Shown: one piece after another, positions 2,355 through 42,545 of the stretch
How the letters are laid out: each line of letters opens with the position of its first letter
Position numbering within the stretch: position 1 is the stretch's first letter
Position numbers and translations under genes: made by a program
Source: Amphiscolops sp. MND2022
Lineage: Eukaryota
Assembly (NCBI GenBank): GCA_964187785.1
Contig: OZ076409.1
Span: 17,982,001 to 18,046,000, forward strand
Direction of reading: 5' to 3'
Length of the DNA: 64,000 bases
The notes under the pieces: model-generated
Database searches by the model: none
Seen by the model: the letters and a program-made list of their open reading frames with translations, nothing else
What the model was told of the DNA's origin: nothing

Positions 2355-2568
2355 ACACTCTCTCAGTTTTGTGCAAGCTCTCTTCCGGCACACTCGCCTA
2401 CTACTTCATCTTTTCACAATTGCTACTCCTCCACCACTTGAAACCCTTGCAGAAGTTCATCTTCCTCAATCCAATAACACCTCTCTCATCATAACAGTCT
2501 TCAAAAACTATTCACCTAAAGTTGATAAATCCACTCGTTAGTGACATTTAGAATACTTTAACTTTGAA

Positions 2569-3770
2569 GTGCTAAGGCCTCTTGGAATAGATAACACTGT
2601 GATTGTTGATGTTTTCCCTTTAAACACAATGACACAAGCACAACTTGACTTACAGAAACAGGCGCAACTTGATCTACAAACACAGCTTGAACAAGCAACC
2701 CCAACACATCTCATAACTAGATCTCTTTTAAATGATTCTCCCGTTCTCTATATCGAGACTTCTGAACAAACACCTCCAACTTTTCTTGAACAAATGGAAC
2801 ACACAAAAGTTGAACACGAAAATTCAAAACCTACTCTTTCACAAGATGATACTGATCATACACAAACAACACCACCTCCTCCAAAAAAGCGATATGAAAT
2901 TATGAAAGATCCAATCTTTCTTTCTTCACCAATATATCCTCCTTCAATACCTTCAAAAGTTTCACTTTGTACGAATCGTGACGATCATTTGATCCCATTT
3001 CTTTCAAATGACAATTTCGTCTTTAAAGCACAACTAACTTCCCTCTATATGCATCCTACTGATTATTCATTTCGCTTATATGACAAAAATCAAGACTTTT
3101 CACATCAATTGCCTCCAAAATAAGGGGTCCATACCAATATTGGCTTGATAACGGAGTCAAAATTTTCTCTCTACAATTCAATTTTCTCCGTCCTTCTATC
3201 TACGATCTCAAAACAGATGAATCCGATCCATCTTTCCTTTCTATTTCCCAAGAAGCTACTCATCGTCAAACGTATACTAAATTTCTACAACACACGAAAC
3301 CACAAAATCACATTTTCGTCAGTTACAAATATACATCACCGTTCACAATGACAAATATGTACACCCTTGATCACTCTTGTATAACAGGCTACCTTCGAAA
3401 CTATGACCCTATAAAACAATACTTCTGTTTGCTTCCATACAATAATACTTCAAGTCCACTTATTGTACCTCACGAATACCTCATACATTACGATGACTTT
3501 TTGTTGCCTTGCAACATTCCTACTCAAATTGTCAAACCTCTCACTGTCATTAAACACCTAGTATCTTCTCCGCTTGACGATAAAGATAGAACTTACTATA
3601 CAGCACTCTCCAAGCAAATGTATTCCTACAATGAACTCCTCTTCATTTCTGCAAAAACTATTTCTTTTATGGTACAAGCTGAACAAAAAACTGAACATAA
3701 ATCACACTCTTCACCTATAAAAAACGCTCCTGACAAACTTTCCTCTGTATTGAATAACCGAACACTATAA
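2569..3770 (+). pseudogene. Accessory ORF-a of element A, unknown function, frameshifted
   Basis: ORFs 2569-3123, 3145-3351 and 3348-3770 match 28073-29151 in C (PPPPKKRYEIMKDP, GYLRNYD..KQYFCLLPY). Confidence 0.75.
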
Positions 3771-3774
3771 TAAC

Positions 3775-3965
3775 CGATCACAACACTCACACATATACTG
3801 CACTGCTATGACAGAACACACAAACTTCTCCAGACACTCGATTTAGACTCTCAACGCATCACCCAATCATTCCAAGCAATTCAATCTGCTTTGGAAACGA
3901 TAACTACTCTTTTTAACTCAACTAATCTTCATTAAACTCTCCTACAGGTAATACAAATTTCCTAA
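3775..3965 (+). pseudogene. Accessory ORF-b remnant
   Basis: Manual translation LTHILHCYDRTHKLLQTLDLDSQRITQSFQAIQSALE is near-identical to C 27820-28010; boundaries approximate. Confidence 0.55.
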
Positions 3966-4363
3966 TTTTTCTTCTCTGGTACACCCCATGATACATCTTT
4001 GACACTATATCGAAGGTATTTACATTTTTCACCTAATTAATCCAAATAATCTCTTGCTTCCTGAATGAAATCTCAGGACAATCTTTAAAGTACATACTTC
4101 TTTCCTATAGTACATGTCAAACATAACTATTTTTATCCAAAAACTACATAAAACAATGATACAAGAAATGCAAGACGTTATAGCACAAAACTACCTATGA
4201 AACATTATAGCACCGTTTTTTAAGGTACTTCTCTTCTCTTGTCGTTGTCAAATTTCTTATACTCCGTGTGTTTTAGAAACATCCATTTTTCTTCCTCCTC
4301 CTTCCATACTCTTTCAGAACATCTCCACTTCTCCTTCTTTTTCTTCTACAGCACACTCTCGTC

Positions 4364-4816
4364 ATGGCCTCCAACGCTGAAGTAGAAGGTATCATCACAA
4401 TGACTTCCAGTCAATCAAAAGTACACAGCCTCAAAGCCGCCATTTTTCATACAATGGCTTATAAACTCTCTCTTGAAATCAACAAGAACAAAATCACACC
4501 CAAAACTATTATTGCTTTTCTCAAAGTTTTATACAATGTTGCCCAGATAAAGACAAAAAAAATCACTTTTGAACAGTACTCTCGCATTCATTTGGCTGGC
4601 CCAAAAATCGCAATTTGCGAGACTGCATTCAATGCTGTTTTCGTTTTGAATTCTGCATTTACATCAAAAGACCAATATTTCAAAACTGCCAAACAAGAAG
4701 CAATCCTAGCCTTCAATAACGTTTTCAAAGATTTTGGGTACACCCAAACCCTTGAATACTACGACCCTCAAGTGCATCAAGCCCATCCACCTCAACAACA
4801 TCCTCTATACAACTGA
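4364..4816 (+). CDS. Accessory ORF-c of element A, 150 aa, unknown function
   Basis: Intact ATG-to-stop ORF; homolog in C at 27025-27451; preceded by a pyrimidine tract and CAG acceptor-like site at 4349-4351. Confidence 0.75.
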   Translation: MASNAEVEGIITMTSSQSKVHSLKAAIFHTMAYKLSLEINKNKITPKTIIAFLKVLYNVAQIKTKKITFEQYSRIHLAGPKIAICETAFNAVFVLNSAFTSKDQYFKTAKQEAILAFNNVFKDFGYTQTLEYYDPQVHQAHPPQQHPLYN

Positions 4817-5804
4817 ACACTTTACTTACTTTGTCACTCTTCAACTACATTTCTTCTTGATTCCATCATCTTTCTTCTATGATGTTTGAGATGTAGCTGT
4901 AGATCACTCCTCCAAAAGAACTTCTCCTACACATGCTGACACTTTTCACTACACCCCACAAGATGGTCAACATCATCCATCCACACTCTGGGTTCGCAGA
5001 CGTTGCCAACATTCTTCTTGTCCTCGTCACTGGTCTTTCTGTGCGACAGCCATCTTTCTCTTTTTCAACCTGCCTCTTCACTGTTCTTTCTCTGTGGCAG
5101 TCACTACTTCGTCGACTTCTTGACTGGTCTTCACACTTCAATGGACTGCACTCTTCTCCAAATTTCAAACAATGTGATTCCAATTGAGTCAATTTTCAAA
5201 CTAAACTATATAGTCAATTTTAACTAATCTATAACCCTCAATTGTAAACATATAGTCCATCTTAACTAACTAACTTGTAACTTATTGTATTCCATTTTAA
5301 TCAAATTGTAACTCCAATACAGTGTATAATCTTAACCCCAATTTCATCGTAGTGCTATATAAAATCTTAATCTTCTATAATCGTACTATAATTACCCCCT
5401 CTGTTGCTATCCCCACAAAAATTTACCTATAATTACCTTTGTAACCGCAATATTATCCCCTTCCATTGTCTTGTGTATAGTATATTGACATAATCTTATC
5501 TAATTCCTTTGTTACATCTATAATACACTTCAAAAAAATATCTCTAATCCCCATTTTTTACAGAACATAAGTCCTACCTACAGCACAAGAAATTTTCTAA
5601 GATTTTTGGACAAAAATGTTTTCTTTTACAAAACATGTTCTACACCTTTGTTTTACTTCCCAAAAGCAATCCCTAAAAATTTTCAAAATTTTTCTTTTGA
5701 ACTTTTTCAAACTGTAACTTCTCGTTTTTCAATGTTTGAAACTTGCAATTGCCACAGTTCTTTTCTTTCTTCAACTTTTTGCTTCTGCTGTACTCTTCAC
5801 TTTC

Positions 5805-6005
5805 GTTGAAAATGAACTCTCACTAGAACCTTGACTATTCGAAACTTCTTCACTTTTGGTTCACATACCCGCCAATGTTGGTTCACAACTCATTGACAAC
5901 TTCACGCTTTAATTCTTCAACTTGAAAAGTTTTCAATGCTGACTAACTCATGTTGATGACAATTTTTTCAAACAAGCCGATGCCTGGTACGAAAAAGAAA
6001 CATGA
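5805..6005 (+). pseudogene. Accessory ORF-e remnant
   Basis: VENELSLEP*LFETSS...SQLIDNF aligns codon-wise with VENELYFEPRLFKSSS...SQLIDNF in C (~25985-26185); in-frame stops in A. Confidence 0.5.
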
Positions 6006-6291
6006 AACATTAAATAGTTGTCAACAATAACTTGACCGAAAACTGTCAGTCAAAGAAACTGAAAGAACTTGAACCTTTTGCACCAATTGAATCGTCTATG
6101 ACGTAAGAAGTCAAATCGTCTTAGGTTGTTCTCACTCCTTAAGTATGGTACACTACAGAACGAAACTCATGCAACACATGCATAACACATATGAAACAAA
6201 CCTATGCATATAACATCTGAAACAAAAACTTTTAGAACTTCTCAAACACAAAGTGCATATATGTAATTTTATTTTTAAATTCCCGGTTGAT

Positions 6292-6704
6292 TGTGATGCC
6301 ATGATGCATGTCCTCAAAGATTCTATAAATCTGAAATACTCTGAACTCCTAACCAAAGTAATTAGTAAATGTAATCTCATTTGAAAGCTAATTATTGTAG
6401 AAGAAACTTCACTTAATATATCCTGTAACAATCTTCTTAGATTCATCCTGATGCTGTCACATTATTAATTGATGAAACCTACCCTAGTTAATAGAATATA
6501 TCTACTCGGAGAAAATGAGAATTCATCCTGACGATCAGTCTTCTCTCCAGCACTTCAAGAACTGAGATCTCAGAAATAGATTGTACTTAGAGCTAGCTAG
6601 CTGCAAGGTATAAAGTAAGACGACCCTGCTGTTAAAATCATAGACTTCTTATGTCAGTAATAAAACATCTAAAAGAAATAACACACACGCTTTTTAACAG
6701 CTCA
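6292..6704 (+). repeat. 3' LTR of element A (413 bp)
   Basis: Begins TGTGATGCC and ends TTTTAACAGCTCA, the same termini as the C LTRs read on the minus strand. Confidence 0.85.
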
Positions 6705-7167: not shown

Positions 7168-9229
7168 TGTTGGAACTAACGTTGACTGAGTTGCCGATGG
7201 GTTCGGAGTTCCCTATTGATTCAGGCTCGATATCATGTCGTAGAACTGAACCTGAAGGTTCAGTGGCGGAATTTGAAAGACCATCTACTTTCGAGGCTAG
7301 ATTTTCGATTAATTTCAAAATTTCTCTTTGTCCAAATTCTGCGTCTCTTAGTCTTTTGGACCGTCGATTTTCAATCTTGTTTGAAATATCTGAGAAGTCT
7401 TGTTCAGTCAAGCAAGTATTTTCATCAGAAGCCTGGCTTGTAGACTCGACATTTTCCAAACTACTACTTGGGTCACTCCTAAGTTTCCTTTTCTGAGATT
7501 TCTCGGGCATCGTCGAAAAGTTTAGTTGATCAAACAGGTTAATTCGACTGGTTTAACTGGTGGTTGAACAAATCAAGAGTTTCCAGAACAAGCTTGTTCC
7601 AATGCAAAGATACAGTCTCAAATCCAAAGAAAACGTTCGCAAGCAAATAAAAGAGTACAATCAATAATTGAAAACTCAAAATTCAAAGTTTTGGGAATTA
7701 CAAATCAAGGTTGAGCTTTCGCGAAATCAAAATAACACTGTCCTTTTCCTTTTCCCACTTCAGGTATTTATACTTTGCGCTAGACACGCGGGATAAATCC
7801 CGCGCGTGAATTCACACTTCGTTCAGCTCGGCGTCCTTCCGAGGCAAGAAAATCCAAGTCAGGTACGCTTCCTCGGGACTCGGCTTTCGGCTTCATCTCA
7901 CTTCAAAGGAAAAGTGGGAATCAACTTCCTGCCGAAGTCCCAATTCCGCGTACCTTTCTTCTTCATCTCCCGCCAATTCAAGACGCCGAACCGAAGTTAG
8001 CACTGAAATTCATGAACCTAGCTACTGAAGCGGGAAAAGGAAATGAAGTTTACATCGAAGAAAATGAAACTCTAAATAAAATAAAACTGCACTAAATTAA
8101 GAAAAATGGGAATTCGGGCATTATTATTCTCATCAACTGAACACAAAATGATCAATTTGGGTGGATTAATTCGTTGGTTAAAGTTCTGGTCGAATGCCAG
8201 GGCGGAGTGTTAAACTGAAATTTTCCGGAACACTTGACCGGATATTGAACATCATTAATCAACACAGTGGGGGGGGGGTTTAACGCAACTTTAATGGCTT
8301 TAGTGAGTATTATATGCCATTCAATCAATAAACGTTCATAACAAATTAATAATCAGCACTTGTCACAATGTAATTAATCTTTCATTCGTTCTCAACTAAG
8401 CAGTTGCCCCGGCGGTCGACCCGGGGTGGGGCTCTACCAACACAGTAATATTTGAATAAAAATACTACAAAACGAACGAAATATTGCTCTGGTGGGGGAA
8501 TCAGGACAAATTAACAATATTATCCATGTTACACTAATGATTAATGCACAGTAATATCAACTATATTTGATCGGTTGTCCCGGTGGTTGTCCCATTTGGA
8601 AAGTAGAGTTGGGTGACCAGGCGGTTGACCTAAATAATAAAACAAATACTTTCATCCTTTAGACCCTTCATTATTTCCATCGGTTATTTATTTGTGGTTT
8701 GAGCTTCTTTTAAGCTCTGTGATCACGATAGAATAGCACAACATGTTATACAGTAATACTATTGCTTCAGTTGTTTCAAGCGTGCGACCAGGCGTGCGAC
8801 CCAGCACTCGGTCGACTGGTGAGCTGCCTGGTATTGCTGTTCAGCTAGCGCGGTGAATTTGCGCTAATCGCTGATTGGTCCGATGAAATTGGAATGAAAT
8901 TTAATCTGCTTTAGCTCCATTGTTATTGTAGCGGTAAATTGATCAGCGTGTTGGCTGAGTTAATTTCGGTCAATATGCTGGTCGCTTTACTGTAAACAAA
9001 TCACACTAATAGCACTTTAATAATATTTAAGTATTTACATATTTATGTATTTTAGGTACTGCGCTGGGTTAATAATGTTTGTTGGATAGTTTAGATGGGT
9101 TGTTTGTTAATTGTTTCTTTCAAGGTGAATGATGTTCTTATTCGGTCCCTTTCTGGTTGATTTCTCTATTTCCTTCCTCTGGCGTTCTCCTTGTATTCGT
9201 TATTTCGCTGCTCCTAGAGGGCTGCGACA
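7168..9229 (-). repeat. 3' LTR of element B (2062 bp), carries a copy of the gag 5' end
   Basis: Direct repeat of 20794-22854. Confidence 0.97.
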
Positions 9230-9773
9230 GTCCCCTGCTTTGGTGAGGGACGTCCACTATGGGAGGTAATGGAGAAATTGGCCTGAAAGGCGACGATATT
9301 GGCGGAAGAAATACCGATTGTACCATTGAATCGTAAGATAGCCAGGACGAATCGGTTGACCAGTCACTTCCTGAGAAGTAACCTATCGAACTAGAGTTAC
9401 TGGAGATGGGGCTGATTGTCCCATCGTGCGGCCCGTATAGCCAATTGTCCATGTTCTCGTAGTTTCTAGGGGGGCTCGTGAATTCGTCATCCGGGATGAT
9501 CGGGTTGGAGTTGACAAATTTCCTGTATGGTAATGTGTCCGATTGGGCCGTTGCTAATATAGATATTGGTGCCGACTCATGATAAAGGACAATATGTTCC
9601 GTCCCAGTGTTAATAATCTCGTAAATATCCTCAATTATTGGTGTTTGAGTATTTTCGCATTTATCACCATGCACCTTAGGTGTTGATTGTGCACAGGGGT
9701 TTACTGGGGCAGCGTCTTGGTCGCGGTCCAAAATGAAATAATCGGTTGAGGAATTGAGTGTCGATGAATTCAT
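9138..9773 (-). CDS. Element B sense-strand 3' ORF, 211 aa, S/P/D-rich, crosses the PPT and ends inside the 3' LTR
   Basis: Intact ORF with ATG; an ORF occupies the equivalent position in element D. Confidence 0.55.
   Translation of the reverse strand: MNSSTLNSSTDYFILDRDQDAAPVNPCAQSTPKVHGDKCENTQTPIIEDIYEIINTGTEHIVLYHESAPISILATAQSDTLPYRKFVNSNPIIPDDEFTSPPRNYENMDNWLYGPHDGTISPISSNSSSIGYFSGSDWSTDSSWLSYDSMVQSVFLPPISSPFRPISPLPPIVDVPHQSRGLSQPSRSSEITNTRRTPEEGNREINQKGTE
9230..9241 (-). other. Polypurine tract of element B
   Basis: AAAGCAGGGGAC immediately before the 3' LTR on the minus strand. Confidence 0.7.
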
Positions 9774-10054
9774 TTGATCCGATGAGTAAATAAATTGTAT
9801 GCAATAAATAGTAATACTTGTAAGTAATGCTGAGCGGCTGTTCTGCGGAATGGTCGAGTAATTGAATGATAATTCCGTTCTTTTCTTTTGTTCACGCCGC
9901 TTGCATGAATGGGAAAGTTTTCAGCTGGCAGACTGAATGACTTCCATTACGTCATACTAATAATATTGTATAGTAGTAATCTCGTTGGTTTTACGCCACG
10001 TCTTCGTATTGGTATTATTGTGTTGACATTTTTAGATTGATTTGCTTGCAAACG

Positions 10055-13000
10055 ATGTCAAATTCGACTGACGAAGATGATCAACGACTGTTACAGGCAG
10101 GAAAGATTGGAGTTATGGAGAGCGAGGGTGAAGCAGTGTTAGGAGGAGGGGAAGTCGCGAGTGGTCTGGATGAAGGGAATGGGGAGGAATCGCAATTGAT
10201 TATTGCTGAGACAACTGATGAGGCTGTCACTGGAGATTCTCCTGTTGAGTTGGAAGTTCCGGTGTCTTGTGGTGGGCGTGGATTTGGAGAAAAAGATGAT
10301 GACAGCGACTCTGATAAATCTGGGTCTAGTCTGAGTGAAGTTGGTGTTCCCCGCGGCGATACCGGTGACGATGATGATGATGATGATGGAGGAAATTCTG
10401 TGCATTCAGCATCTAGTGACGCCCGCCATGAATTGGACTATTTGCATGATTTAAAGGGTGAGTTCCTTAGCGAATTGTTAGTGGCCAGCTAACTTTTCAT
10501 GCTAGTATACAGACGCGTCGTTTCATCCAACTTGTCTGTGTTTTAGGCTTGTCTGACGATTCTCATGATGAGGATTATGTTCCTGGGTCTTCTGTTCGCG
10601 TGTCAGCTACTGTGGAACGTGTCCGTCGCGAAGTGTCCTTCGTTGAAGGCAGTCCCGTGAAGCGTGGTCGTTGGTCCTGTTCTGGGACACCTGCCAGGGA
10701 AACTGCTACTGCTGCACCTAATGTAGAGACTAGTGGTGGGTAAATCTTCTCCTTTGTTATCACATGTCATTTGTCCATACTTTGTATATTTTTGATTATA
10801 GTCGTTTCCTCACCATTTGGGATGCATACGTCTGCGGGGGTTCATTCGACGGACTCTGAAGGTGTTTTGCCAGTGACGGGGGGCTTTGCTTTCAGCGAGG
10901 AGCCTGGGTGTAGTGATCAGCCTAAGCGGGGGCGGACCCAGCATGCTCGTCTTGCCGAAGGCCTGGAGCGCTCTGTGATCCACAATGAATGGGCTAAAGG
11001 TGATTATAGTTTTGTTGTTGGGTTATTAGTGGTTGTTATTTTGGTCTGTCCTTCGTTTTTGTTTTTTTTTGTTTTTGCCGTATGCAGTCTGTCTGAACTG
11101 TGTTCACCCATGATCTTCTTTTTAGCTGGGTTGAAGGATGTGCCAGAAGGTGCTGTGTGTATGTCGGCATCACAGGTTTTGGCTTTCGGCCAGGCAGCTG
11201 TTCGATTGGAGCGGACCCAGAGTCGTGTGGAGGATCGTTCATTGTCGCGCCGTTAGTATTGCACTCTTATGGCTCATTTCCAGCATCAGTAGTTATCATC
11301 TTTATACTCCGTGTATTTCTTGATTCGATGATAGTTGATTGGAGAGGGGCGGGATAGTAGGTTTCGGGGTGACTTGGTAATGAGTGTTTGTATTTCTGTT
11401 TGTAAGTCTGGACGAAATCATGCGCCTGCTCAAGCAAAAAGGGATCCAACTGCATCGAGTCCGTGGGCATTTGAACGCTGAGGAGGAGACCAAGAGCAAA
11501 TTGTTTGCGAAGTACGAGAGAAGGAAAAAACGGCAAAGCGAGCGTCATGTTCTTCGCAGAGAGATGGCTACACATGCGATTCCTCGGCTCTTTGTTAGCC
11601 GAAGGACTGATAAGAACCCAAACGGGTTCAATTGTGCGATTTGCCGTAAAGATGTTTCGTTTCTGTCGCGTGGGGAGCTGGAAATCTGGAGGCATTTCGG
11701 TCGCAAAACTCATTTCGCAAAGGACCGACGATATCGGCTTGACCATGAAGATTGCATCTACACAGAGAAGTTTGATGAGATTGCTGTTGCCACCATATCA
11801 CCAGAGTTGCGTGCTGAAATTGAGCTGACGCCCCCTGTTGTTCTTGGACCAAAGAATGCGTTCGAGGAGGATGAGGTGGACGCTCTTGTGGGCGTAGTTT
11901 CCAATGTGCCTTGCTCAACCTTGGTTGGGGGTTTGTTTGAATTGTTGCGGAGTGGCGGGTCCCACAGCTTCCTTAGACGTTTGTGGAGTCAGTTCAGGAC
12001 GACCATCCCCGTGGAGACCAGCTATGCCCAGGCCACCTGGAGTAAAACTGAGTCATTTGTTATTTTGTGTCAGACATTGTATCCCCGAATTTTGCGTCGG
12101 GTGCAATCTGGTTGTAAGCTGTCTGACTTCAGTATTTCTTTCCGGCGTGACGATAGTGGGGTGCAGTGTTATGTCCACTTCTTTGCTAGCGATGTCGTCC
12201 GCGAGGTTTGTGTGCTGTGGGAAGAAGTCTCTCCTGGGCTGTGCGATGCGGAGATCAAGTGCTTGACCCGCGTCCTCGCGATTCTCCCAATTGATCAGTC
12301 TCCAGTTGCTGTCCGGGGCTGTCCTTCGACGCTGTTCAATGTGTTTTCTTCGTGGTGCAAGGACGAAGGGCGACCGGTGCCACTGCCTGTGCTGGAGTAT
12401 ACCCCTGATGTCTTTAGAGAGCAAATTCGTGAAGCTGGCTTAGTTGGTGCAAACTTGTTGGATCCATTTGCTATTTTGGACTATTTGCTATTGCGCTTGG
12501 TTAGAGCCGTCCACCAGCCTTGGTTAGAGTCTCTGCCGACTTTTCGTGTGTGTATAAGCCAGCGCCAGGTGCCGTTTCCTTCTTTGCGTGCTGCTATCTC
12601 AGAGTTGATACATCATTGGGCCGATGTGACACTATTCTTGAAAGAGACGGGGACTGTTCTTCCTTCAAAGGGCAAGGCTCCTCTTGACGTTGGTCAGCTC
12701 ATTGTGTCGGATACCCTAGTGTTGCCCCGATTGAGTGTCTTGCATGTTCTTGTTGCGTGCTTCGAGGCCAACTTTGTGAAGCAGTTTGATGAATCAGTGA
12801 CTGACTACACCTGTCGTAATTATTCCGATTTCTGCTATTTTTATTGGAGTTTGCTCGGCAAAGTCAAGAAGTTGAGTAGTCTGCCTGAGATCGAGGCTTG
12901 GAGCCAGTACATCGGTCGTCCCTTGACTACGTGGGCTAATATCCCTTTCGTCGAGTGTCTTCGTGGTGAGCCCCTTGTGACCGTGGCCTTATCAGCTTGT

Positions 13001-13996
13001 GGAGATACTGTTCGGCGGCCTTTCCTCCGTGAGTGCCATGGGTTTCTTTCGGAATTCTTGAAGGTGTTAAATCAGTCGGCATATGCGAAGTCTGTCCTGT
13101 CCTCAAATCTGAGCTGCTTTTCGCCTGATATGATGTTGTTGGGCGATGAATCTTACGCAGTTCAATTGTTCAAAGATTTGACGACTTGTCTTCTTGACTG
13201 TGGGCGGTTGGCGTCGTTGGATTGTGAGGCGGCCAGTAATGAGTTCAAATCTCTACTTGTGGAGTTACGGCGTCGGAATCGGCGTGTTGTGTCGTCGATC
13301 AAGGACAGTTTTGTATTCTTGCGGGATTCCGGACTTCTAGACTGCCGGCTGAATTTGGATAAGGTGGTACAAATTGCTGCAATGGCGATGGTTCCGCGGT
13401 GTGTCAATTATCCTGTCGTGGATATGTCCTTGAGTGGAGCTTTGGTGCCGAAAAAGATCCTGTTGTCTTCGATATTTGCTTGTCAGTCATATGTGACATT
13501 CAGGAAGTTTGCCTCCGGAGAGTTGTTGACCAGGGACTGTCTAGAAGAACTGAAAACCAATTTGCCGAACGGGAAGGGTTTCATGGAGGACGCTTCGTTT
13601 ACACCGTGGAGGCCGTTGTATGCTCATACCCGCTGTGATATGTATCGAAGATTGCGAGATGCTTTCGATGCATACTATCTGGATCAAGTATCGGAATGGC
13701 GTCGACGAGCTGGATTGGGCTTGTATGCCGCGACCGCGTCTCCTGATAAATTGTTACCCGAGTTGCAATTCTCGCATGCTGCATCTGTTGTTGAGGAGAA
13801 TGTTGGGACTTCTTCCGCCGTTAATACTCCCCCTTCAGTGAAGTCTGTCGGCAAAACGGTCAAGCAGGCGGGTGGTTCTGGCAGTATTGCGGAGATCGTC
13901 AAGATGAAGAAAGATCTTCGGCAAAGTGGTGTGTCTGGGTCGTCGTCTGGTAAAGGCAGTTCTAGTGGGTCAGTGAAACGTGGATCCGGGCGATGA
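10055..13996 (+). CDS. Antisense spliced gene in element B: acidic N-terminus, BED-like zinc finger, hAT-transposase-like body
   Basis: Frame-consistent exons 10055-10457, 10547-10735, 10802-10999 and 11126-11251 with GT..AG introns; long open exon ~11400-13996 containing CAIC-x(16)-H-x(5)-H; junction between exon 4 and the long exon unresolved; homologous to 50731-54643. Confidence 0.8.
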
Positions 13997-14336
13997 AACA
14001 CATTGTAGCAAATTTGGATCAAACTTTAGATTTAGTTGTATTTGTACTGCTATATGTTGTATTTCTGTTGTTATTGGTCCGAAAGGTCCATCAGTATGTC
14101 GATTTACCATAGTAAGCAAACACAGACAAAATTGTCTGAAAATTGAATCGCCACTTTGTGGGAAAAAAAGGGGTTTGTTAACAAACCCGGCAAGTAAAAC
14201 AGTACAGGGAGTTCTTGAATTTATTTCTTTGCCCTTCGAATTTGTTTTCTCGTGAGTTTAGGTTGAGTCGTAGGGGTGATTAAGTAGTTTGTAATAGGGT
14301 AAATGAGACGATGATCCTTCCAGTTAGTTGGGAGTT

Positions 14337-17300
14337 TTAGTCTGTCGCGTTGGGTTCAGCATTTATCGGATTATAATAAGCATAATCCTTCTTCCAATTT
14401 GATGGAGGGTTTGCCCTTAAGTTGTATTTGTTTTTTCGGGGAGAACTCGGGGTTGGGGTATCATTTTCAGTGGCATCAGGATCGGCGTTTAGCGTGGCAT
14501 TTCCTGGGTGTTCGTTTGGGTTAGGTTCCAGGGGAAAATCTCCTGGGTCATTCGTTGGGTTGTCCGTTTGGGTAGGTAGATCTTCGTGTGACTCTGGAAT
14601 TGTTATTGTGGGTTCTGTTTGAAATGGGGGTGTCGTTGAGGTGTACTCATCGAAATTGGACTGCCATGCCTGCGCGTATAGGTCGTCGTGGAAGACGTCT
14701 ACTTCCTTGTCTGGGGTGTAATCTTTGGGCAAGACAGGTTTGTCCGGGAGCGATTTGTCGGTAGGGCATGGTTTCAAGCGAATCCTGTGTAGGATTTGTG
14801 TATAGTTTGTCTGTAGTTTCCGTATTAGGTAATTGTTGTTGGGGAGCACTTTGACAATAATATAGGGCCCTGTCCAGAGGTATTCTTTGAATGGGAGTTT
14901 GGTTCCCTGGGTATTCGCTTTTGGGTGTAAGGCGTAACAGTATTCGTTGACATTGAGGGGGTGGGCGTTTGCTTTTTTGTCGTAATACTGTTTGTATCGC
15001 ACGTATGACTGCATTAAGTTTTTGTTCACCGCCTCCTTGATTTGCTGTGTTTTGTGTAGAATGTCTTCTCCCATGTTCGTCGTCGTAGTTGTAGGTCGTT
15101 GGTTTCGTATGCCAAATTTGAGGTCCAACACGTTATATGGGATCCTCCCGTGGAACACTCGGCTGGGTTCACACCCTAAGGCGGAGTGGTACGATGTGTT
15201 GTAATTCAGCGTGGCGATGGCTACGTATTGATGCCACATCGTCCGGCGCTCTCCTGTCGAGATTTTCAGCGATTCTTTCAGAGAGGCGTGGCTTCTTTCT
15301 AAAATTCCGATGGTTTGGGCATGTTTAGTGGTAGCATGACGGAGATGTATGCCCAGGGTTCTCGTCGCGTCTGCCATTACCTCAGACATAAACTGAGTGC
15401 CCTTGTCGGTGATGACTGTAGTAGGGAGGTAGGCGTGACGGGTCATGATGTCGACCAAAACTCGGGCTACTGTGGGGGCGTCCGTTTTGACGACATAGTA
15501 GGTGAAGAGGTAGCGCGAGTAGACGTCCATTGCAGTGACAATCGCGTTATAGCCACCGGAAGGCTCATCAAACGGGACGATGTCCATTTGAAGTGCATCT
15601 TCTGGGCCTAGGGCCAGTTTGGAAGTGTCGATCATTGGTGGTGTAATGGATCGTTTGTCCGTTCGTTTGGTCTGCATGCAGTCGGTACACCTGGAGATGT
15701 GGTGTGCTATTCTGGCTGCCATGCCTGGGTAGTAATATTTCTCTCTGCATTGCTGTATTACCTTGGCTATTCCGGGGTGTTTATTGGCTTGGCCATGGTG
15801 CGCTAGGATGAAGGAGTCAACCAAATGTGCAGGTAACAGGATTTGCAGGAATTTGACCTTTCCTGCGTGGTCGTAATACTCTCGGTATAACAGTCCGTCC
15901 TTTAGGATTATTCGGTTGGCTTGTGCGCTGTATTTGGCTGCTCGGGGGTCGGTTGCCAAGAGTTGTTCATTGTGAGGTTCCTTGAGCAAGCGGAGTTTGT
16001 AATTTCGCAGGACATTGTCTTGGTCCTGTTGTTGCCTCATGGTCTTCGACGGACCGTCGTGTTCGTCGGTAGCTTTGGGTGGTCCTTGGGTTACGAGTAT
16101 TTCCGTTTGAAATATGGTAACTTCTTGGTCATTGTTTGGTGTTTTGGGATTGGTTTCGTCGGGGCCAGGTTCTTTATTGTTGTCATCGGCAATTTTCTTT
16201 CGTGCACGGAGCTTGCGCTCCCATATTTGTTCTTCAGTTTCCGTGTCATCATCAGGCATGAAGAAAAATTGTTCTTCTTCCGCGACATCGGATGACTGGA
16301 TGTTGACCTGGATCGGTGTTGTTCGTATGTCATCTCTTATTGTGAGGTGGACCTTGTCTTTTGGATGAAGGTCGAGGCGGGACAGGAAGTCCGCGGGAGT
16401 GTTCATTTTGCCCGGCACATGAGCAATGGTGAAGTGAAACTGAAGAACAAAATCGCAGGCATTCCAGAGGGCCGGGGGTATGATTTTGGTTTGAAAGAAA
16501 CGTGTCACTGATTTATTGTCGGTGAGGACGACAACCGGTTTGGTTGATTCCCAAAGAATGTGGCTATACTCCATGAAAGCGAAGTATATTGCCAGAAATT
16601 CTTTCGCGTAGATCGACATTTTAATTTGTGACGGGGAAAACATTTTTGACCCGAATGCCACTGGTGCGTAGGTTTTTCGGACTGAGCTGATTTTTTCTTC
16701 GGGGTTTTCTTCGATCATGAGGGCATAACCTGCATTTTTGAAGTTGGCGTCGGTCATGAGTACGTATTGTCTGTTAGGCATAGGTTGTTTGAGCCACAAA
16801 CCACAGGCATTGTCCAAGGATTTGTTGATGTTGGTGAAGGAGTTCATGATCTCGTTTGTGATCTTGATGGGCTTTTCAGCCTTGATGAGCTCGTGGAAAG
16901 GGGCTATCTTTTCGGAAAGCCTGGGAATGTAATTCCGGTAGTAGTTGACGAAGCCAATGTAGCGCTGGAGACCCTTTTTGGTTTTTGGGAAGGTCAGTTT
17001 TTGTAGGTAGTTGTGGATCTTCTGATCTTGGGGGGCAATTCCTTCTGGTGACACTGTTCGTCCAAGGAATTGGACTTCCTTGGCACCGAACTGGCATTTG
17101 GCCATTGTCAAACGCAGGCCTGCTTCGCGTACGCACTGGAAGACCTCACGCAGGTTGGTCTTCAGCTCCTCGGCGTTGTGGGTGGCAATCCCGATGTCGT
17201 CAACGTACTGAGCGCATTTGTCAGCCTTGATGACTCGATCGAGATATTCTCTCATGAAGCTCGAGAAGGAGGAGAGGGACCTGCTGAGCCCTTGTGCGAG

Positions 17301-19754
17301 TCGGAGGTATGCGAATGTTCGACTGGCGAAATTGAAAGCTAGGAGTTCGACCGACTTTTTGTCTGCCATTTGCAAGACGTGATAAGCCTGGGAGCAGTCT
17401 AGCTTGCAGAATAGCTTTTTCCCTGCGAGGTGTTGGGCAGCGTCTGAGAGGGTGCTGACCGGGTGGTTGTTATTTGTGTAGTCGTCCGCTATCAAATTGT
17501 TGATCTTTCGGAGGTCGACTAGCAGTCTGAGGCGTCCGTTTGGTTTTCTCTGGGCAAATATGGGACTTGCATATTTGCTAAACGGTAGCGTGGTAATGAT
17601 GCCGTAGTAGTGCATCAATGCCAGTTCTACTGTAAGATCTTCTTTGAGATTCACTGGGCAGGGTAGGCTCTGCGTGTAGGCCGGCTGATCGTTTTTCGGG
17701 GTCAGTTTTATTTTGAAGTCGTGGTTGACGCCTATGTCCAGGCGGTGACGGGCGAAGACGTCATGGTATTCAACCAGAATGTTCTCTTTGTCAGCTCGGT
17801 CTTGGCTGTTCAATTGGGAGTCCTCCCATTTAAAATTCTCGAGGAATTTTTGTCTGCTTTGAGGGCTTGTTGTTGGGTCGAGTTTTTGGATTTCCTCTAG
17901 TTCTTCGATTTCTCGGAGGATCCTTCTCTGGACGGGGGTGTGGGTTGATGGGTCCCCCGGATTGTCTGGAGTTGGGAACCAGAACTGTTGGGTGGTCTCA
18001 GGTTTTTCTGTGGTTTTTAAGAGTTCGTTTACGTACTCTAGCGCCTGTTCTGAGTCGTCCTCTGTTAGGATTTTGAGCGCGGCGATGGGGATGGGTTTGA
18101 TGTTCTTCGCTTCGTTGGGCGTTGTAATGTGAAATTCAGCTACCACTGTGTTCTTTTTGATGGTAAATGGGGTAGGTGAGGTGTTCGTGATCCGGATGGG
18201 TATTTTCATTTCGTGGACTGTGGATAGTGAGCTGGCGATCACTATTTGTTTGTCTTCAGAATAGTTTGGGAGTGGGTGGATGACGCCCGTAGTGTCTGCT
18301 ATAGCCCTTATGTTGACTAGGGCTTCGATTGTGATGCATTGGTCAGGGGCCAGTGTCGTTTGGTTGGGGATGGACACCTTGTGTGGTTTCGCTGGTTGTT
18401 CTTCGGACACTGGGTTTATTGCGTAGGTTAGATGAGGGAAGTGGAGAAGTCCCTGGCTTGCGTCGAGGATGGCGCTGTTGGTTTTGAGAAAGGTGAGGCC
18501 GAGAATGGGGCCATTGATTTTGCTGGCTACTATGAATGTCTCTTTGAACGTCCAGTCGCCGATTTCAAACTGCACTTGGATAGTCTTGATCGGGGTTTCA
18601 ATGTCGCCATTTGCGACTTGTAGTTTGAACGGCGGTGGGTCAGATTCTTGTAGGAGATTATTGGGGCTCATGGTTTTGAGTTTTTGGTACTCTTGTTCGG
18701 GCATGCAATTGACCAAGGCCCCGGAGTCAATGAGGGCGTCAATGGAAAAATGTTGGAAATCCATCGGTGCGAATAGCATGCGTCTTTTCTGTTTGAGAGC
18801 AATTGCTGAGAATATTGGGAGGCATCGTTCTCCCGTTGGATTGTTTGTGGAGGTGATGTTGACTAGCTGGTCTTCATCCAGTTGTATCAGTGGGTTATTG
18901 TTATCTTGTTGGGTATCTACCGGTTTGGGGTTTGGGTGCGGATTTTGATTGAATTCGCATGTCAGTGCTCGTTTGATCCGCCTCGTCTTTGGGGCTGTAT
19001 TAGCGTTGGTTGTATTTGCAGGATTGTCGGAAGGGTCCCCTTCTTTGTGTGTAGTTGTCGTGCCTGTAGTTGAGTTTGTTGGGTGGACGGAGCTGTCCTT
19101 TATTGGGAATTCAGGGCTTTGGGGAGATGATGGCGATGACGTCATTGCAGCCCGGATTTCATTTGTGTGTGCCGGAACTCTTGTGGGTGACCCGTATTCG
19201 GTCGAATTGGTGATTTGTGGTTTGAGGATTGGTCTCAGAGAAATCGTAGGGGGTGTGACGATAACTTGTATTTCCTCGTTTTGTTCTTCGGCGTGTTGTA
19301 CGGGTGAGTGACTGAGGTTGCCATCATCTTTCCGCTTTGTGGTGTCCAGATTCATGTTTGTTTTCTTGGCGAATGCGTGGAAGGGTACATTGATCATCTC
19401 TTTGAAGGTTAGGGTAGTTTGGTCGTATAGGTCAGGGTTGTGGTAGGGGTCACAGTCGTAGTCTGGGTCGAGTATGTAGGTGAGAGGAGTTGAACTGGGA
19501 GGGAGAGGGCGTCGGGTTGTATTGTAGAGTTGAGGGTTTTCTTGGTACCATTCTGGATATTGCAATTTGTCAACGGTGGATTTGTTGAACTTGATGAGGC
19601 GCCGTATGAGCCATCTCCGCTGCCAGTCGGTAGATGGTTCACCGGAACACTCTGCGAACATCTCTAAATCGTGGTCCTTCGGGGGTTCGGATGTTGTGTA
19701 AAATCGGTAATCGATATAATCCCCGAAGCGAAGACGTGGCTTTAGGAGTTTTTT
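14337..19754 (-). CDS. pol: Pol polyprotein of element B (protease, RT, RNase H, integrase), reached by -1 frameshift
   Basis: LIDSGA, QYVDD, LMTDA...KEFLAI...LTDN, HHCC zinc finger, MDIV...TDKG...E catalytic core, WTGPY; frame is open from the slippery site through ORF 14337-19661. Confidence 0.97.
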   Translation of the reverse strand, partial: KKLLKPRLRFGDYIDYRFYTTSEPPKDHDLEMFAECSGEPSTDWQRRWLIRRLIKFNKSTVDKLQYPEWYQENPQLYNTTRRPLPPSSTPLTYILDPDYDCDPYHNPDLYDQTTLTFKEMINVPFHAFAKKTNMNLDTTKRKDDGNLSHSPVQHAEEQNEEIQVIVTPPTISLRPILKPQITNSTEYGSPTRVPAHTNEIRAAMTSSPSSPQSPEFPIKDSSVHPTNSTTGTTTTHKEGDPSDNPANTTNANTAPKTRRIKRALTCEFNQNPHPNPKPVDTQQDNNNPLIQLDEDQLVNITSTNNPTGERCLPIFSAIALKQKRRMLFAPMDFQHFSIDALIDSGALVNCMPEQEYQKLKTMSPNNLLQESDPPPFKLQVANGDIETPIKTIQVQFEIGDWTFKETFIVASKINGPILGLTFLKTNSAILDASQGLLHFPHLTYAINPVSEEQPAKPHKVSIPNQTTLAPDQCITIEALVNIRAIADTTGVIHPLPNYSEDKQIVIASSLSTVHEMKIPIRITNTSPTPFTIKKNTVVAEFHITTPNEAKNIKPIPIAALKILTEDDSEQALEYVNELLKTTEKPETTQQFWFPTPDNPGDPSTHTPVQRRILREIEELEEIQKLDPTTSPQSRQKFLENFKWEDSQLNSQDRADKENILVEYHDVFARHRLDIGVNHDFKIKLTPKNDQPAYTQSLPCPVNLKEDLTVELALMHYYGIITTLPFSKYASPIFAQRKPNGRLRLLVDLRKINNLIADDYTNNNHPVSTLSDAAQHLAGKKLFCKLDCSQAYHVLQMADKKSVELLAFNFASRTFAYLRLAQGLSRSLSSFSSFMREYLDRVIKADKCAQYVDDIGIATHNAEELKTNLREVFQCVREAGLRLTMAKCQFGAKEVQFLGRTVSPEGIAPQDQKIHNYLQKLTFPKTKKGLQRYIGFVNYYRNYIPRLSEKIAPFHELIKAEKPIKITNEIMNSFTNINKSLDNACGLWLKQPMPNRQYVLMTDANFKNAGYALMIEENPEEKISSVRKTYAPVAFGSKMFSPSQIKMSIYAKEFLAIYFAFMEYSHILWESTKPVVVLTDNKSVTRFFQTKIIPPALWNACDFVLQFHFTIAHVPGKMNTPADFLSRLDLHPKDKVHLTIRDDIRTTPIQVNIQSSDVAEEEQFFFMPDDDTETEEQIWERKLRARKKIADDNNKEPGPDETNPKTPNNDQEVTIFQTEILVTQGPPKATDEHDGPSKTMRQQQDQDNVLRNYKLRLLKEPHNEQLLATDPRAAKYSAQANRIILKDGLLYREYYDHAGKVKFLQILLPAHLVDSFILAHHGQANKHPGIAKVIQQCREKYYYPGMAARIAHHISRCTDCMQTKRTDKRSITPPMIDTSKLALGPEDALQMDIVPFDEPSGGYNAIVTAMDVYSRYLFTYYVVKTDAPTVARVLVDIMTRHAYLPTTVITDKGTQFMSEVMADATRTLGIHLRHATTKHAQTIGILERSHASLKESLKISTGERRTMWHQYVAIATLNYNTSYHSALGCEPSRVFHGRIPYNVLDLKFGIRNQRPTTTTTNMGEDILHKTQQIKEAVNKNLMQSYVRYKQYYDKKANAHPLNVNEYCYALHPKANTQGTKLPFKEYLWTGPYIIVKVLPNNNYLIRKLQTNYTQILHRIRLKPCPTDKSLPDKPVLPKDYTPDKEVDVFHDDLYAQAWQSNFDEYTSTTPPFQTEPTITIPESHEDLPTQTDNPTNDPGDFPLEPNPNEHPGNATLNADPDATENDTPTPSSPRKNKYNLRANPPSNWKKDYAYYNPINAEPNATD

Positions 19755-21136
19755 GACTCCATTTCTGGTGGTGCCATGGTTTGTGGCTGCTGCATCGGGA
19801 TCGTTTGTGGGTTTTGTGTGATGGGAATATTATTGGGGGGCGTTGTTTTAGGTGTTTTCCACCATGAGGGGCGGTTTGCCCAATTCGCTCCAGAGAAGCA
19901 GTCTTTCGTTTCGTGGCTCATTTTGCCACATGTCTCGCAGGGAGTGGATTGAGTTGGAGCGTTTGTTTTTTGGGATCGTTTGTCCCGATTGGTTTTCCTG
20001 CAGTTTCGTAGGAGGTGACCTGGGTTGCCGCACCCAAAGCATGGTCCCGTTGTTCTGGGGGGATTGTTTTGTTGCTGTTGTTGTGAACTGGGTTCGATGT
20101 TGTGGACTCCTGTGATTGAAAGGCTGTCGTTGGTAGCGAGTCCATTGAGTTCGATTTCTCGTTCCAAGTGCTGTACCATTGTCTCGTACGATTCTGTTTC
20201 TAGTCTTGCCTGGTTTAGGACCTTCTTGAGGTGTGGTGGCATTTTTGCATAGAAGGATGTTTCTATGAATCGGGGGGCGTCCTCTCCATAGGCTTCTTGT
20301 GCTAGTTTTTGGTATTGCTCCAAGAAGTCTGGGAAGGTTTGTTGGCTTGGGTTAAATGACAGATTTTCCCATTTGCACCGTACAGTTGCCACTGACTGCT
20401 GTCGGACGTATCTCCTGCGGAAGCCTGCCAGGATGTCATTCAGGTGTTCGCGTGTTGCTTCCGTCATGTTCCTGAATGTTTGTAACGCTTCGCCTCTCAG
20501 GAGGGAGTGAAAGTAATGGATCTTTTCTTCTTCAGTGATGTTCGGGTATACTTTGAGGCTTGTCTGGAAAAGGTCCTCAAAGTGCTCGAACTTGTCCGTT
20601 TTCCCGTCGAAAGTCGGCATCGTAGTGGACATGGCTTTTGGTAGCCTGGGGACGCCTGAGTTGTTTGTTGTTGCCGTTTGCAGCGATTGTAACAGTTTAT
20701 CAATGATGTCATCGGGGTACCTCTGGTTTGGAGGTGGCAGACTTGATGATCGTTGATGATTTTCTTGATGGTTCGCAGAGACTCCTGTCACCATGTTGGA
20801 ACTAACGTTCACTGAGTTGCCGATGGGTTCGGAGTTCCCTATTGATTCAGGCTCGATATCATGTCGTAGAACTGAACCTGAAGGTTCAGTGGCGGATTTT
20901 GAAAGACCATCTACTTTCGAGGCTAGATTTTCGATTAATTTCAAAATTTCTCTTTGTCCAAATTCTGCGTCTCTTAGTCTTTTGGACAGTCGATTTTCAA
21001 TCTTGTTTGAAATATCTGCGAAGTCTTGTTCAGTCAAGCAAGTATTTTCATCAGAAGCCTGGCTTGTAGACTCGACATTTTCCAAACTACTACTTGGGTC
21101 ACTCCTAAGTTTCCTTTTCTGAGATTTCTCGGGCAT
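19742..21136 (-). CDS. gag: Gag of element B, 464 aa, two CCHC knuckles; starts within the 5' LTR
   Basis: PTFDGK...FEDLF capsid-like region; CFGCGNPGHLLRNC and CETCGKMSHETKDC. Confidence 0.93.
   Translation of the reverse strand: MPEKSQKRKLRSDPSSSLENVESTSQASDENTCLTEQDFADISNKIENRLSKRLRDAEFGQREILKLIENLASKVDGLSKSATEPSGSVLRHDIEPESIGNSEPIGNSVNVSSNMVTGVSANHQENHQRSSSLPPPNQRYPDDIIDKLLQSLQTATTNNSGVPRLPKAMSTTMPTFDGKTDKFEHFEDLFQTSLKVYPNITEEEKIHYFHSLLRGEALQTFRNMTEATREHLNDILAGFRRRYVRQQSVATVRCKWENLSFNPSQQTFPDFLEQYQKLAQEAYGEDAPRFIETSFYAKMPPHLKKVLNQARLETESYETMVQHLEREIELNGLATNDSLSITGVHNIEPSSQQQQQNNPPRTTGPCFGCGNPGHLLRNCRKTNRDKRSQKTNAPTQSTPCETCGKMSHETKDCFSGANWANRPSWWKTPKTTPPNNIPITQNPQTIPMQQPQTMAPPEMESKNS
19748..19754 (-). 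promoter_or_regulatory. -1 ribosomal frameshift heptamer A AAA AAC (element B)
   Basis: Lies at the gag end; the -1 frame is continuous with pol; same heptamer in D at 59985-59991. Confidence 0.85.
20781..20793 (-). other. Primer binding site of element B (tRNA-Leu-like), inside the gag ORF
   Basis: TGGTGACAGGAGT directly after the LTR-terminal CA; first 12 nt identical in D; tRNA identity inferred. Confidence 0.8.
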
Positions 21137-22854
21137 CGTCGAAAAGTTTAGTTGATCAAACAGGTTAATTCGACTGGTTTAACTGGTGGTTGAACAAATC
21201 AAGAGTTTCCAGAACAAGCTTGTTCCAATGCAAAGATACAGTCTCAAATCCAAAGAAAACGTTCGCAAGCAAATAAAAGAGTACAATCAATAATTGAAAA
21301 CTCAAAATTCAAAGTTTTGGGAATTACAAATCAAGGTTGAGCTTTCGCGAAATCAAAATAACACTGTCCTTTTCCTTTTCCCACTTCAGGTATTTATACT
21401 TTGCGCTAGACACGCGGGATAAATCCCGCGCGTGAATTCACACTTCGTTCAGCTCGGCGTCCTTCCGAGGCAAGAAAATCCAAGTCAGGTACGCTTCCTC
21501 GGGACTCGGCTTTCGGCTTCATCTCACTTCAAAGGAAAAGTGGGAATCAACTTCCTGCCGAAGTCCCAATTCCGCGTACCTTTCTTCTTCATCTCCCGCC
21601 AATTCAAGACGCCGAACCGAAGTTAGCACTGAAATTCATGAACCTAGCTACTGAAGCGGGAAAAGGAAATGAAGTTTACATCGAAGAAAATGAAACTCTA
21701 AATAAAATAAAACTGCACTAAATTAAGAAAAATGGGAATTCGGGCATTATTATTCTCATCAACTGAACACAAAATGATCAATTTGGGTGGATTAATTCGT
21801 TGGTTAAAGTTCTGGTCGAATGCCAGGGCGGAGTGTTAAACTGAAATTTTCCGGAACACTTGACCGGATATTGAACATCATTAATCAACACAGTGGGGGG
21901 GGGTTTAACGCAACTTTAATGGCTTTAGTGAGTATTATATGCCATTCAATCAATAAACGTTCATAACAAATTAATAATCAGCACTTGTCACAATGTAGTT
22001 AATCTTTCATTCGTTCTCAACTAAGCAGTTGCCCCGGCGGTCGACCCGGGGTGGGGCTCTACCAACACAGTAATATTTGAATAAAAATACTACAAAACGA
22101 ACGAAATATTGCTCTGGTGGGGGAATCAGGATAAATTAACAATATTATCCAAGTTACACTAATAATTAATGCACAGTAATATCAACTATATTTGATCGGT
22201 TGTCCCGGTGGTTGTCCCATTTGGAAAGTAGAGTTGGGTGACCAGGCGGTTGACCTAAATAATAAAACAAATACTTTCATCCTTTAGACCCTTCATTATT
22301 TCCATCGGTTATTTATTTGTGGTTTGAGCTTCTTTTAAGCTCTGTGTTCACGATAGAATAGCACAACATGTTATACAGTAATACTATTGCTTCAGTTGTT
22401 TCAAGCGTGCGACCAGGCGTGCGACCCAGCACTCGGTCGACTGGTGAGCTGCCTGGTATTGCTGTTCAGCTAGCGCGGTGAATTTGCGCAAATCGCTGAT
22501 TGGTCCGATGAAATTGGAATGAAATTTAATCTGCTTTAGCTCCATTGTTATTGTAGCGGTAAATTGATCAGCGTGTTGGCTGAGTTAATTTCGGTCAATA
22601 TGCTGGTCGCTTTACTGTAAACAAATCACACTAATAGCACTTTAATATTATTTAAGTATTTACATATTTATGTATTTTAGGTACTGCGCTGGGTTAATAA
22701 TGTTTGTTGGATAGTTTAGATGGGTTGTTTGTTAATTGTTTCTTTCAGGGTGAATGATGTTCTTATTCGGTCCCTTTCTGGTTGATTTCTCTATTTCCTT
22801 CCTCTGGCGTTCTCCTTGTATTCGTTATTTCGCTGCTCCTAGAGGGCTGCGACA
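20794..22854 (-). repeat. 5' LTR of element B (2061 bp)
   Basis: Direct repeat of 7168-9229, followed by the PBS on the minus strand. Confidence 0.97.
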
Positions 22855-25725: not shown

Positions 25726-25984
25726 ATCAACCGGGAATTTTTGAAAATAAAATTCATTCATCTGCACTTTGGAAGTGTGGAGTTCTGAAGTGTTTTTGTC
25801 TTGCATGAAATTTTGTTCTAGAAAAGCACTGTACTTAAGGAGCGAGAACAACCTAAGACGATTTGACATCTTACATAAGTGACGATTCAAATTGGTGCTA
25901 AAGTTTCAGTTTTCTTAACTGACAGTTGCGTTCAAGTTATTGATTGACAACTTGTTCACTAGTTTATGTGATATATTAGTTTTG

Positions 25985-28010: not shown

Positions 28011-28072
28011 CAGAGGGATTGCGTTAGTATGGGTCCAAAAAAGTGTGTGATATCTTTAAATAGTACGATTAT

Positions 28073-33150: not shown

Positions 33151-33188
33151 TGGTCGACTAGTTTTCGTTGGGTTAGCAGAGCGAAGGG

Positions 33189-38325: not shown

Positions 38326-38329
38326 ATGT

Positions 38330-42543: not shown

Positions 42544-42545
42544 AT

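Follow-up and report, generated by a model that had tools for sequence, protein, structure and literature searches.

The window analysed here is a stretch of 64,000 nucleotides (nt) from Amphiscolops sp. MND2022 (contig OZ076409.1, positions 17,982,001 to 18,046,000). It contains several long terminal repeat (LTR) retrotransposons, including two complete Ty3/gypsy elements, here called B and D, which lie on the minus strand. Between pol and the 3' LTR, each carries a long gene on the opposite strand. This antisense gene had been placed at 10055-13996 in B and at 50731-54643 in D, both on the plus strand, by an earlier annotation made from the window alone (the original prediction), and these bounds stand. 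The gene very probably descends from a hAT transposase and has been kept under selection. On the best reading of the evidence it was captured once, long ago, and its product may now act as a non-catalytic nuclear regulator of the element.

Element B (7168-22854) has TG...CA ends and a 5-bp target-site duplication (TSD), GTTAC. Its 3' LTR (7168-9229, 2062 nt) and 5' LTR (20794-22854, 2061 nt) differ by 12 mismatches and the element is young. The gag frame (19742-21178, with DUF1759 and a zinc knuckle) and the 1830-residue pol frame (14337-19829) are also on the minus strand, so that pol meets the antisense gene tail to tail. Element D (47183-62650, TG...CA ends, TSD TCACC) is older: its LTRs (47183-48691 and 61121-62650; 1509 and 1530 nt) show 63 mismatches, and gag-pol survives as fragments at 54930-61316 on the minus strand (integrase, ribonuclease H, reverse transcriptase, protease with a dUTPase-like stretch, and gag). 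The order protease, reverse transcriptase, ribonuclease H, integrase is the same in both, and both have a purine run (polypurine tract) before the 3' LTR. They also have in common the primer-binding site TGGTGACAGGAG (20760-20793 next to the 5' LTR in B, 61085-61120 in D), which we take to be probably of the leucine tRNA type. The pol proteins are 51-57% alike; the LTRs are unrelated (best blastn E 0.11), as originally claimed.

The window copies were compared with loci sampled from the 1.07-Gb assembly. The B set consisted of the window copy and 20 B-type copies taken from 131 scored matches so as to cover the range of identities, and the D set of the window copy and 20 D-type copies from 124 scored matches. 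Two distant proteins from a profile search matched 95 and 105 further genome sites, of which 20 were sampled as distant loci. Splice sites were annotated in six reference copies by patterns requiring GT and AG, and in the others by alignment.

Comparison across copies indicates that the antisense gene is spliced. The predicted B exons are 10055-10457 (beginning with ATG; acidic and of low complexity), 10547-10735, 10802-10999, 11126-11251 and 11406-13996, the last holding a zinc finger, the hAT-like core and a low-complexity tail. The junctions 10457/10547, 10735/10802 and 10999/11126, predicted from the window, are recovered exactly by the comparison of 21 copies. A fourth intron (11252-11405) had escaped notice because its acceptor is degenerate in the window copy, as it is in one other B copy. 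Splice dinucleotides are canonical at 166 of 168 positions. The four introns (89-92, 66-98, 93-126 and 128-162 nt) vary in length out of frame, and yet all are in phase 1 throughout and exon phase is kept. A canonical open frame of 1170-1208 amino acids results from splicing in 18 of the 21 copies; without splicing, the frame reaches only 138-183. The 870-residue open reading frame (ORF) named in the original prediction does exist, but it is the last exon only and not the whole product. Its ATG at 11420 is not conserved among B copies, so this long frame is not a gene alone.

Donor-like sites had been noticed at other positions in D. They belong to three predicted coding introns (52497/52582, 53058/53127 and 53343/53499), separating exons at 50731-52497 (an S/T/P-rich N-terminus, RKRR and the zinc finger), 52582-53058 (RNase H-like strands), 53127-53343 and 53499-54643. 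The sites are canonical in 122 of 126 cases, and 6 of 21 copies have an open frame, with a product of 1209-1223 amino acids. Stops, frameshifts and one degenerate acceptor disrupt the window copy of the D gene, and the damage includes exons 1 and 2.

The B and D proteins are homologous, as had been proposed. Their collinear alignment spans 684 columns (probability 99.8, E 2.4e-28, 21% identity) and covers every motif named in the proposal. All three D junctions map gap-free onto uninterrupted B sequence. A phase-0 intron at codon 213 is present in D and in 13/13 modelled distant copies (16 tried) and absent in B, the B lineage having lost it precisely. For a second core intron in the distant lineages, the automatic choice was scattered over codons 404-454, and 3 of the 16 loci gave no model.

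Two further features of gene structure were seen. An acceptor-like TTTT(T/C)AG is conserved right before the start codon in B alleles (10000-10054), in D (50522-50730) and in the distant lineages; it suggests a 5' untranslated region (UTR) intron or trans-splicing, with a clear donor in D only. In one element (L090, 950-2950) the D-type antisense gene is partially duplicated in tandem.

The origin of the protein is seen in its fold. In the model predicted for the last exon (predicted local distance difference test, pLDDT, 74.6), an RNase H-like core is combined with a helical insertion and C-terminal helices as in the Hermes transposase. Model residues 196-699 (12005-13516, plus strand) match Hermes residues 133-609. 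Hermes chains fill the first 11 rows listed by Foldseek (E 1.2e-4 to 7e-3), the next family following at 0.041. In the VIA wide fold search Hermes scores Z 12.8 (root-mean-square deviation 4.6, 394 residues aligned), and the next match, at Z 6.8, is another transposase. The best match in a viral structure library is a hAT dimerisation-domain protein (E 3.1e-5), and those Atlas neighbours that have a family belong to hAT, FAM200, ZBED5 and C17orf113. Three fold searches and Atlas thus support the hAT origin originally predicted, with Hermes as the first structural match.

The protein is like Hermes (PDB 8edg, 4d1q), ZBED, FAM200, C17orf113 and DAYSLEEPER in its zinc finger, RNase H-like core and C-terminal helices. 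Unlike hATs and domesticated hATs, it has a long acidic N-terminus and the finger spacing H-x5-H, and its gene resides in a retrotransposon instead of being a fixed host gene and is without terminal inverted repeats (TIRs).

Two results weaken this picture. The Atlas recognition score (2289) and number of shared features (156) fall just short of the marks that the tool states, and aligning the profiles with those of the genome's own hATs gave no significant result (E 0.59 and 0.3). Sequence searches were likewise negative. Pfam gave no significant match for the last exon and 35 homologues, nor did PDB sequence searches with the B and D profiles, and profile searches with the genome's own hATs showed no sequence similarity. 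A genome search for DUF4371 found no match, with a control query that likewise matched nowhere. The C-terminal dimerisation domain PF05699 was found by Pfam in 0/35 members; the fold alignment reaches Hermes residue 609, and the Atlas neighbours carry this domain. Since sequence methods find nothing, the capture is judged to be old. Four lineages, B, D, F1 and F2, are separated by the pol tree and by the last-exon tree alike, with B and D together. This deep congruence points to one capture followed by descent. The original prediction of a single ancestral capture kept under selection agrees with these trees, with the substitution rates and with the near-universal carriage described below.

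Whether the captured protein still cuts DNA can be judged by comparison with active transposases. Hermes requires D180, D248, R318, W319 and E572, according to the accessible text of PMC6027215. Mapped to Hermes, the genome's ordinary hATs retain these residues (D 9/9, D 8/8, R 10/10, W 10/10, E 13/13). The corresponding columns were counted in 35 members of the antisense family. Acidic residues do not reach 70% in any column of strand 1 (236-246) or strand 4 (295-304), no C/H column occurs at 320-330 where CxxH would lie, and the RW position reads mostly P-F (385 P in 18/35, 386 F in 30/35). The helix expected to hold the catalytic Glu is missing from the predicted model. The protein had been called probably catalytically dead, with GCP in place of a catalytic Asp; no equivalent of D180, D248, E572, CxxH or RW appears where expected, and GCP falls at the second Asp in the register adopted. 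Loss of the cutting residues is thus strongly suggested by the column counts and the model.

That register was read by eye from the secondary structure, because the profile alignment is not significant, and this tempers the conclusion. It also leaves some room for a protein that is still an enzyme, such as a nuclease or a strand-transfer helper with shifted acidic residues: D462 is invariant (35/35), position 395 (E395 in the model) is D or E in 35/35, and residue 668 is D or E in 25/35. However, these columns lie outside strands 1 and 4 of the RNase H-like sheet, E395 and D462 being in the helical insertion. CxxH and RW are absent, and an enzyme would find no transposon ends as substrate. Retained activity is therefore improbable.

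Ordinary hATs were also seen in their own right. Five of them (L121-L125) have frames of 597-697 amino acids with D, D, CxxH-type, RW and E motifs, and are unrelated in sequence to the antisense gene.

The zinc finger, C-x2-C-x16-H-x5-H, is encoded at 11633-11713 (plus strand; residues 72-98 counted from ATG 11420). C72, C75, H92 and H98 are conserved, and the finger is modelled with a pLDDT of 87.9. Of the earlier description as a BED finger, the conserved zinc finger stands and the label does not: zf-BED matches it in 0/24 members, and the fold matches are weak, RNA-binding U1 and matrin types (Z 3.4-4.3) ranking above BED fingers (Z 2.2-2.4). With the finger alone, Foldseek gave no match at E <1 and Atlas none that was informative. 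In B the N-terminus is 20-23% D+E and has basic clusters. A histone-binding DEF/Y idea was dropped for this region: the acidic motif DxD[FY]xP is found in B only (5/5 alleles against 0/20 distant loci).

All 40 B- and D-type copies sit tail to tail with a gypsy pol. The same arrangement is seen in 20/20 distant loci, which are 22-36% alike to B or D over most matches. The expectation that homologues always lie inside such elements thus agrees with 60/60 gene-picked loci, in which position and orientation are fixed. A reverse test started from 144 loci picked by the B integrase (73-100%). The gene is carried by 142 of them: 94 have a listed antisense partner, and 48 of the 50 others were positive in a 190-nt probe, 3 of these being short or displaced.

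Outside this genome, no named or annotated full-length homologue was found among the database matches, all of which (34 and 65) are unnamed ENA proteins. One of these is just 41-46% alike to anything scored in the genome, which hints at an antisense gene of this kind in other species. A scan of JGI metagenomes gave 567 pattern matches, 0 of them confirmed.

An alternative explanation is that the gene belongs to a nested hAT transposon or is a neutral passenger. Ordinary hATs are indeed abundant in the genome (150 scored matches). Nevertheless, no TIR pair with an 8-bp TSD flanks the gene in B or D: inverted pairs of at least 11 nt number 0 in B and 6 in D, none with 8-bp flanks differing by at most 2. 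Fixed position and orientation down to 22-36% identity, the lack of sequence similarity to the genome's hATs, and ratios of nonsynonymous to synonymous substitution (dN/dS) far below 1 also contradict it. Own TIRs with a TSD, dN/dS near 1 and a lack of structural similarity to hAT proteins had been named as signs against the original prediction, and none of the three is seen. For the loci sampled, a nested transposon or passenger can practically be set aside.

These ratios show purifying selection. In the B core, dN/dS is 0.05-0.16 in 19/28 pairs with estimable dS and 0.06-0.10 in the 4 unsaturated pairs, similar to pol between backbones (0.05-0.11). The ratio is 0.19-0.51 for the acidic B exons, and between alleles the tail is almost unconstrained. 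In D the range is 0.08-0.29 (15 pairs). The claim that the gene has been kept under selection therefore holds for the B core and for D, with the reservation that the ratios come from open-frame copies only (18/21 in B, 6/21 in D).

Selection acts on a gene that is also exchanged. For instance, L066 and L070 are about 98% identical on either side of the gene and 45-73% identical across it. Conversely, L066 and L067, and likewise L078 and L079, have a common allele (90-99%) on different backbones. Breakpoints are sharp. On the left the switch usually falls at the conserved block that precedes the start codon, and on the right just past the stop. Shallow trees of gene and pol are discordant with full support. 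Eleven allele types were sampled, mostly 45-78% alike. F1 and F2 have the same pattern as B, pol being 87-97% alike and the last exon 42-59%. Assembly chimeras are a poor explanation, because most combinations are seen at several loci. Within lineages, then, the whole gene is swapped between backbones as a cassette, in many alleles that are 45-80% alike.

The allele pool bears on two further explanations. In the first, the protein is an integration tether, a dead transposase that binds target DNA or chromatin and guides the integrase complex to safe sites. The fold retained is one that handles DNA, and the gene is almost never lost from the elements. However, alleles only 42-62% alike occur on pol backbones 91-99% alike, and one allele occurs on backbones 60-85% alike. 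Because alleles and backbones mix in this way, no co-evolution with integrase is seen, and a tether is unlikely.

In the second, the protein represses or excludes elements with the same allele, as copy-number control or immunity, so that rare alleles are favoured and many persist. Many deep alleles under purifying selection on near-identical B, F1 and F2 backbones are what negative frequency dependence would give. The pattern would look no different, however, if pol were periodically swept by recombination, and no allele-matched target sequence was found, the conserved cis elements being common to the alleles. Such self-limitation is unlikely as well, ranking just after the tether.

Upstream of the gene lies a conserved block (9890-10006) with CTGGCAGACT at 9925 and TTACGTCA at 9947; we take the latter to resemble a cAMP response element (CRE). 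CTGGCAGACT is common to B and D, and in B and F1 alike CRE-like repeats lie upstream of the gene. A divergent sense frame, ORF3 (9138-9773, minus strand), starts beyond the block; it encodes 211 amino acids, is rich in S, P and D, has no Pfam match and extends into the 3' LTR. An ORF of 136-222 amino acids is present at this place in 20/20 B-type copies. Since ORF3 starts on its other side, the block is probably a bidirectional promoter.

Comparable arrangements occur in other lineages. A D-type ORF3 near 48600-49420 has 278-279 amino acids in intact copies, with a C-x2-C-x2-C stretch and no Pfam match, and is broken in the window's D. In F1 (L139, L147 and L148, about 1900-2250 in gene orientation), five to six tandem ACGTTATG..GACGTCA copies upstream of the gene are reminiscent of subterminal repeats or CRE arrays.

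Another conserved feature is found in the first intron. In all four lineages this intron contains a hairpin with a 6-nt palindromic loop, at 10467-10505 in B (loop TGGCCA, 10482-10487) and at 50562-50600 in D (loop TGATCA, 50578), where it lies in the predicted 5'-UTR intron with a donor-like site at 50522. The loop is TGGCCA in 19/21 B copies and TGATCA in 19/21 D copies; the 20 distant loci have TGATCA in 8, AGGCCT in 7 and TGGCCA in 1. The palindrome GACGCGTC follows the B hairpin at 10512-10519.

The hairpin suggests a role for the protein at the level of RNA, given the same origin. It could bind its own intron-1 hairpin or the hairpin's complement in the genomic RNA, as Rev binds its response element, and thereby control splicing, export, dimerisation or packaging. 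Protein and site would travel as one cassette; in B the exchanged segment includes the hairpin. As a possible kissing-loop dimer signal, the palindromic loop would also promote the template switching that swaps alleles.

Several observations favour this explanation. One stem pair switches from G-C (7) to A-T (12), GACGCGTC follows the hairpin in 19/20 B and 14/20 distant loci (once as the symmetric variant GGCGCGCC), and the interior of intron 1 is 83% alike among five alleles, against 52-60% in introns 2-4. The best fold matches of the finger, moreover, are U1, matrin and double-stranded-RNA types.

Other observations oppose it. Folding z-scores run from about 0 to -3.8 overall; those of B on the plus strand are modest, at 0.1 to -2.1. 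The preferred strand differs, B and F2 favouring plus and F1 minus or a tie (stem patterns caught 8/10 F1 and 4/9 F2 loci). GACGCGTC is missing from 20/20 D loci, and its conservation is partly explained by overlap with what is presumably the branch point. The loop is identical in all B alleles and so cannot explain allele specificity. The finger matches do not exceed Z 4.3, and Rfam found no match in 9200-11500. An RNA-level role ranks second, but is doubtful.

The function ranked first, as a tentative choice, is that of an activator or anti-silencer acting on DNA. The gene would be transcribed from the internal promoter block shared with ORF3 and, as the copies strongly suggest, spliced. The genomic RNA, having the opposite polarity, would carry the introns through reverse transcription. 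The protein of about 1200 residues may enter the nucleus by means of its basic clusters, where the finger and the former DNA-binding scaffold would bind element DNA. The acidic, disordered N-terminus may then keep the element transcribed against host silencing, as VANC or TnpA accessory factors do. Allele turnover would reflect escape from sequence-specific recognition by the host. One difficulty is that alleles are not tied to any particular LTR or promoter block, a pattern that fits poorly with an allele-specific DNA site lying beyond the cassette.

Activation at the DNA level could also be replaced by a composite scheme. Here the dead hAT transposase, its finger shifted toward RNA binding, and the kissing-loop-like hairpin would form one exchangeable control module. 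The protein would license expression or packaging, the hairpin would pair genomes and drive cassette exchange, and conflict with the host or between elements would maintain the allele pool, as with retroviral env types. This scheme is speculative, and somewhat less probable than the RNA-level role by itself.

Antisense genes at this position are known from plants. In Ty3/gypsy elements such as Retand (TRP28, PF04195), maize Grande and rice RIRE2, a conserved aORF-3R lies antisense between pol and the 3' LTR in nearly all active copies; its product has been proposed to be nuclear, to bind DNA and to act as a regulator. In the available text of these reports its origin is stated to be unknown, and an origin from an inserted transposable element (TE) is unsupported by similarity to other TEs (PMC11963269, PMC7264820). 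The gene described here is likewise an antisense ORF between pol and the 3' LTR in most copies. It differs in that the donor class, hAT, is identified by fold, in its several predicted introns (a word that does not occur in the available text of either plant report), and in having alleles swapped as a cassette. The TRP28 domain PF04195 was found in 0/35 members at E up to 1.

Other TE-encoded proteins offer functional parallels. VANC, TnpA and the gypsy-borne plant mobile domain PMD-A are accessory or anti-silencing factors (PMC13547354, PMC5418596, in their accessible portions). They too are non-catalytic proteins thought to act on host silencing, with domains common to retrotransposons and DNA transposons. 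From the same portions, their folds are unrelated to that of the antisense protein, and PMD moved from gypsy elements or host genes into Mutator-like elements, in plants, rather than as a whole transposase into a retroelement.

In animals, the ORF3 of bdelloid LTR retrotransposons (a GDSL esterase or DEDDy exonuclease) lies downstream of pol, has intact catalytic residues and was gained family by family (PMC5408684, accessible text). It likewise shows LTR elements capturing non-env enzyme genes that are shared between retroelement types; no transposase is mentioned there among the captured genes. HTLV-1 HBZ is another antisense nuclear regulator near a 3' end, and Rev with its response element (RRE) illustrates a possible protein-plus-RNA-element logic. 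Neither is homologous, and both serve as analogies only.

The arrangement had been called undescribed. This needs qualification, in that antisense extra ORFs are known in plants, but the hAT origin was not found in the literature searched: no hAT-derived, intron-bearing or multi-allelic antisense gene in LTR elements was found, subscription papers, Repbase reports and supplements being outside the scope of the search. Strong selection on the gene and its exchange in many very different versions point to an undescribed helper function of the protein. Cassette exchange between backbones and the intron-1 hairpin are new here; neither they nor the divergent sense ORF3 were part of the original prediction.

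The gene offers a traceable case in which a class I element has domesticated an entire class II transposase. It also shows that a reverse-transcribed genome can carry introns and can lose them precisely. The interchangeable alleles on common backbones form a natural experiment: genomic data alone allow alleles to be compared for target preference, expression and small-RNA targeting. The function of antisense accessory genes thus becomes directly testable.

The remaining features concern the window at large. A dUTPase-like stretch lies between protease and reverse transcriptase of D (58608-59594, minus strand; PF00692, 21.4 bits against a cut-off of 22); dUTPase is rare in retrotransposons, according to the accessible text of PMC5408684. 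A decayed pair of related gypsy elements at 1-6700 (plus strand) and 25284-43004 (minus strand), 66-77% alike over matched blocks, has a pol only about 25% alike to that of the carriers. Both contain a frame for a Monjiviricetes-type fusion glycoprotein (E 6.6e-14 and 2e-7); such env-like neighbours suggest an animal host. Finally, the window's third element contains a near-perfect inverted repeat at 34738-34898, with 80-nt arms and a 1-nt spacer.

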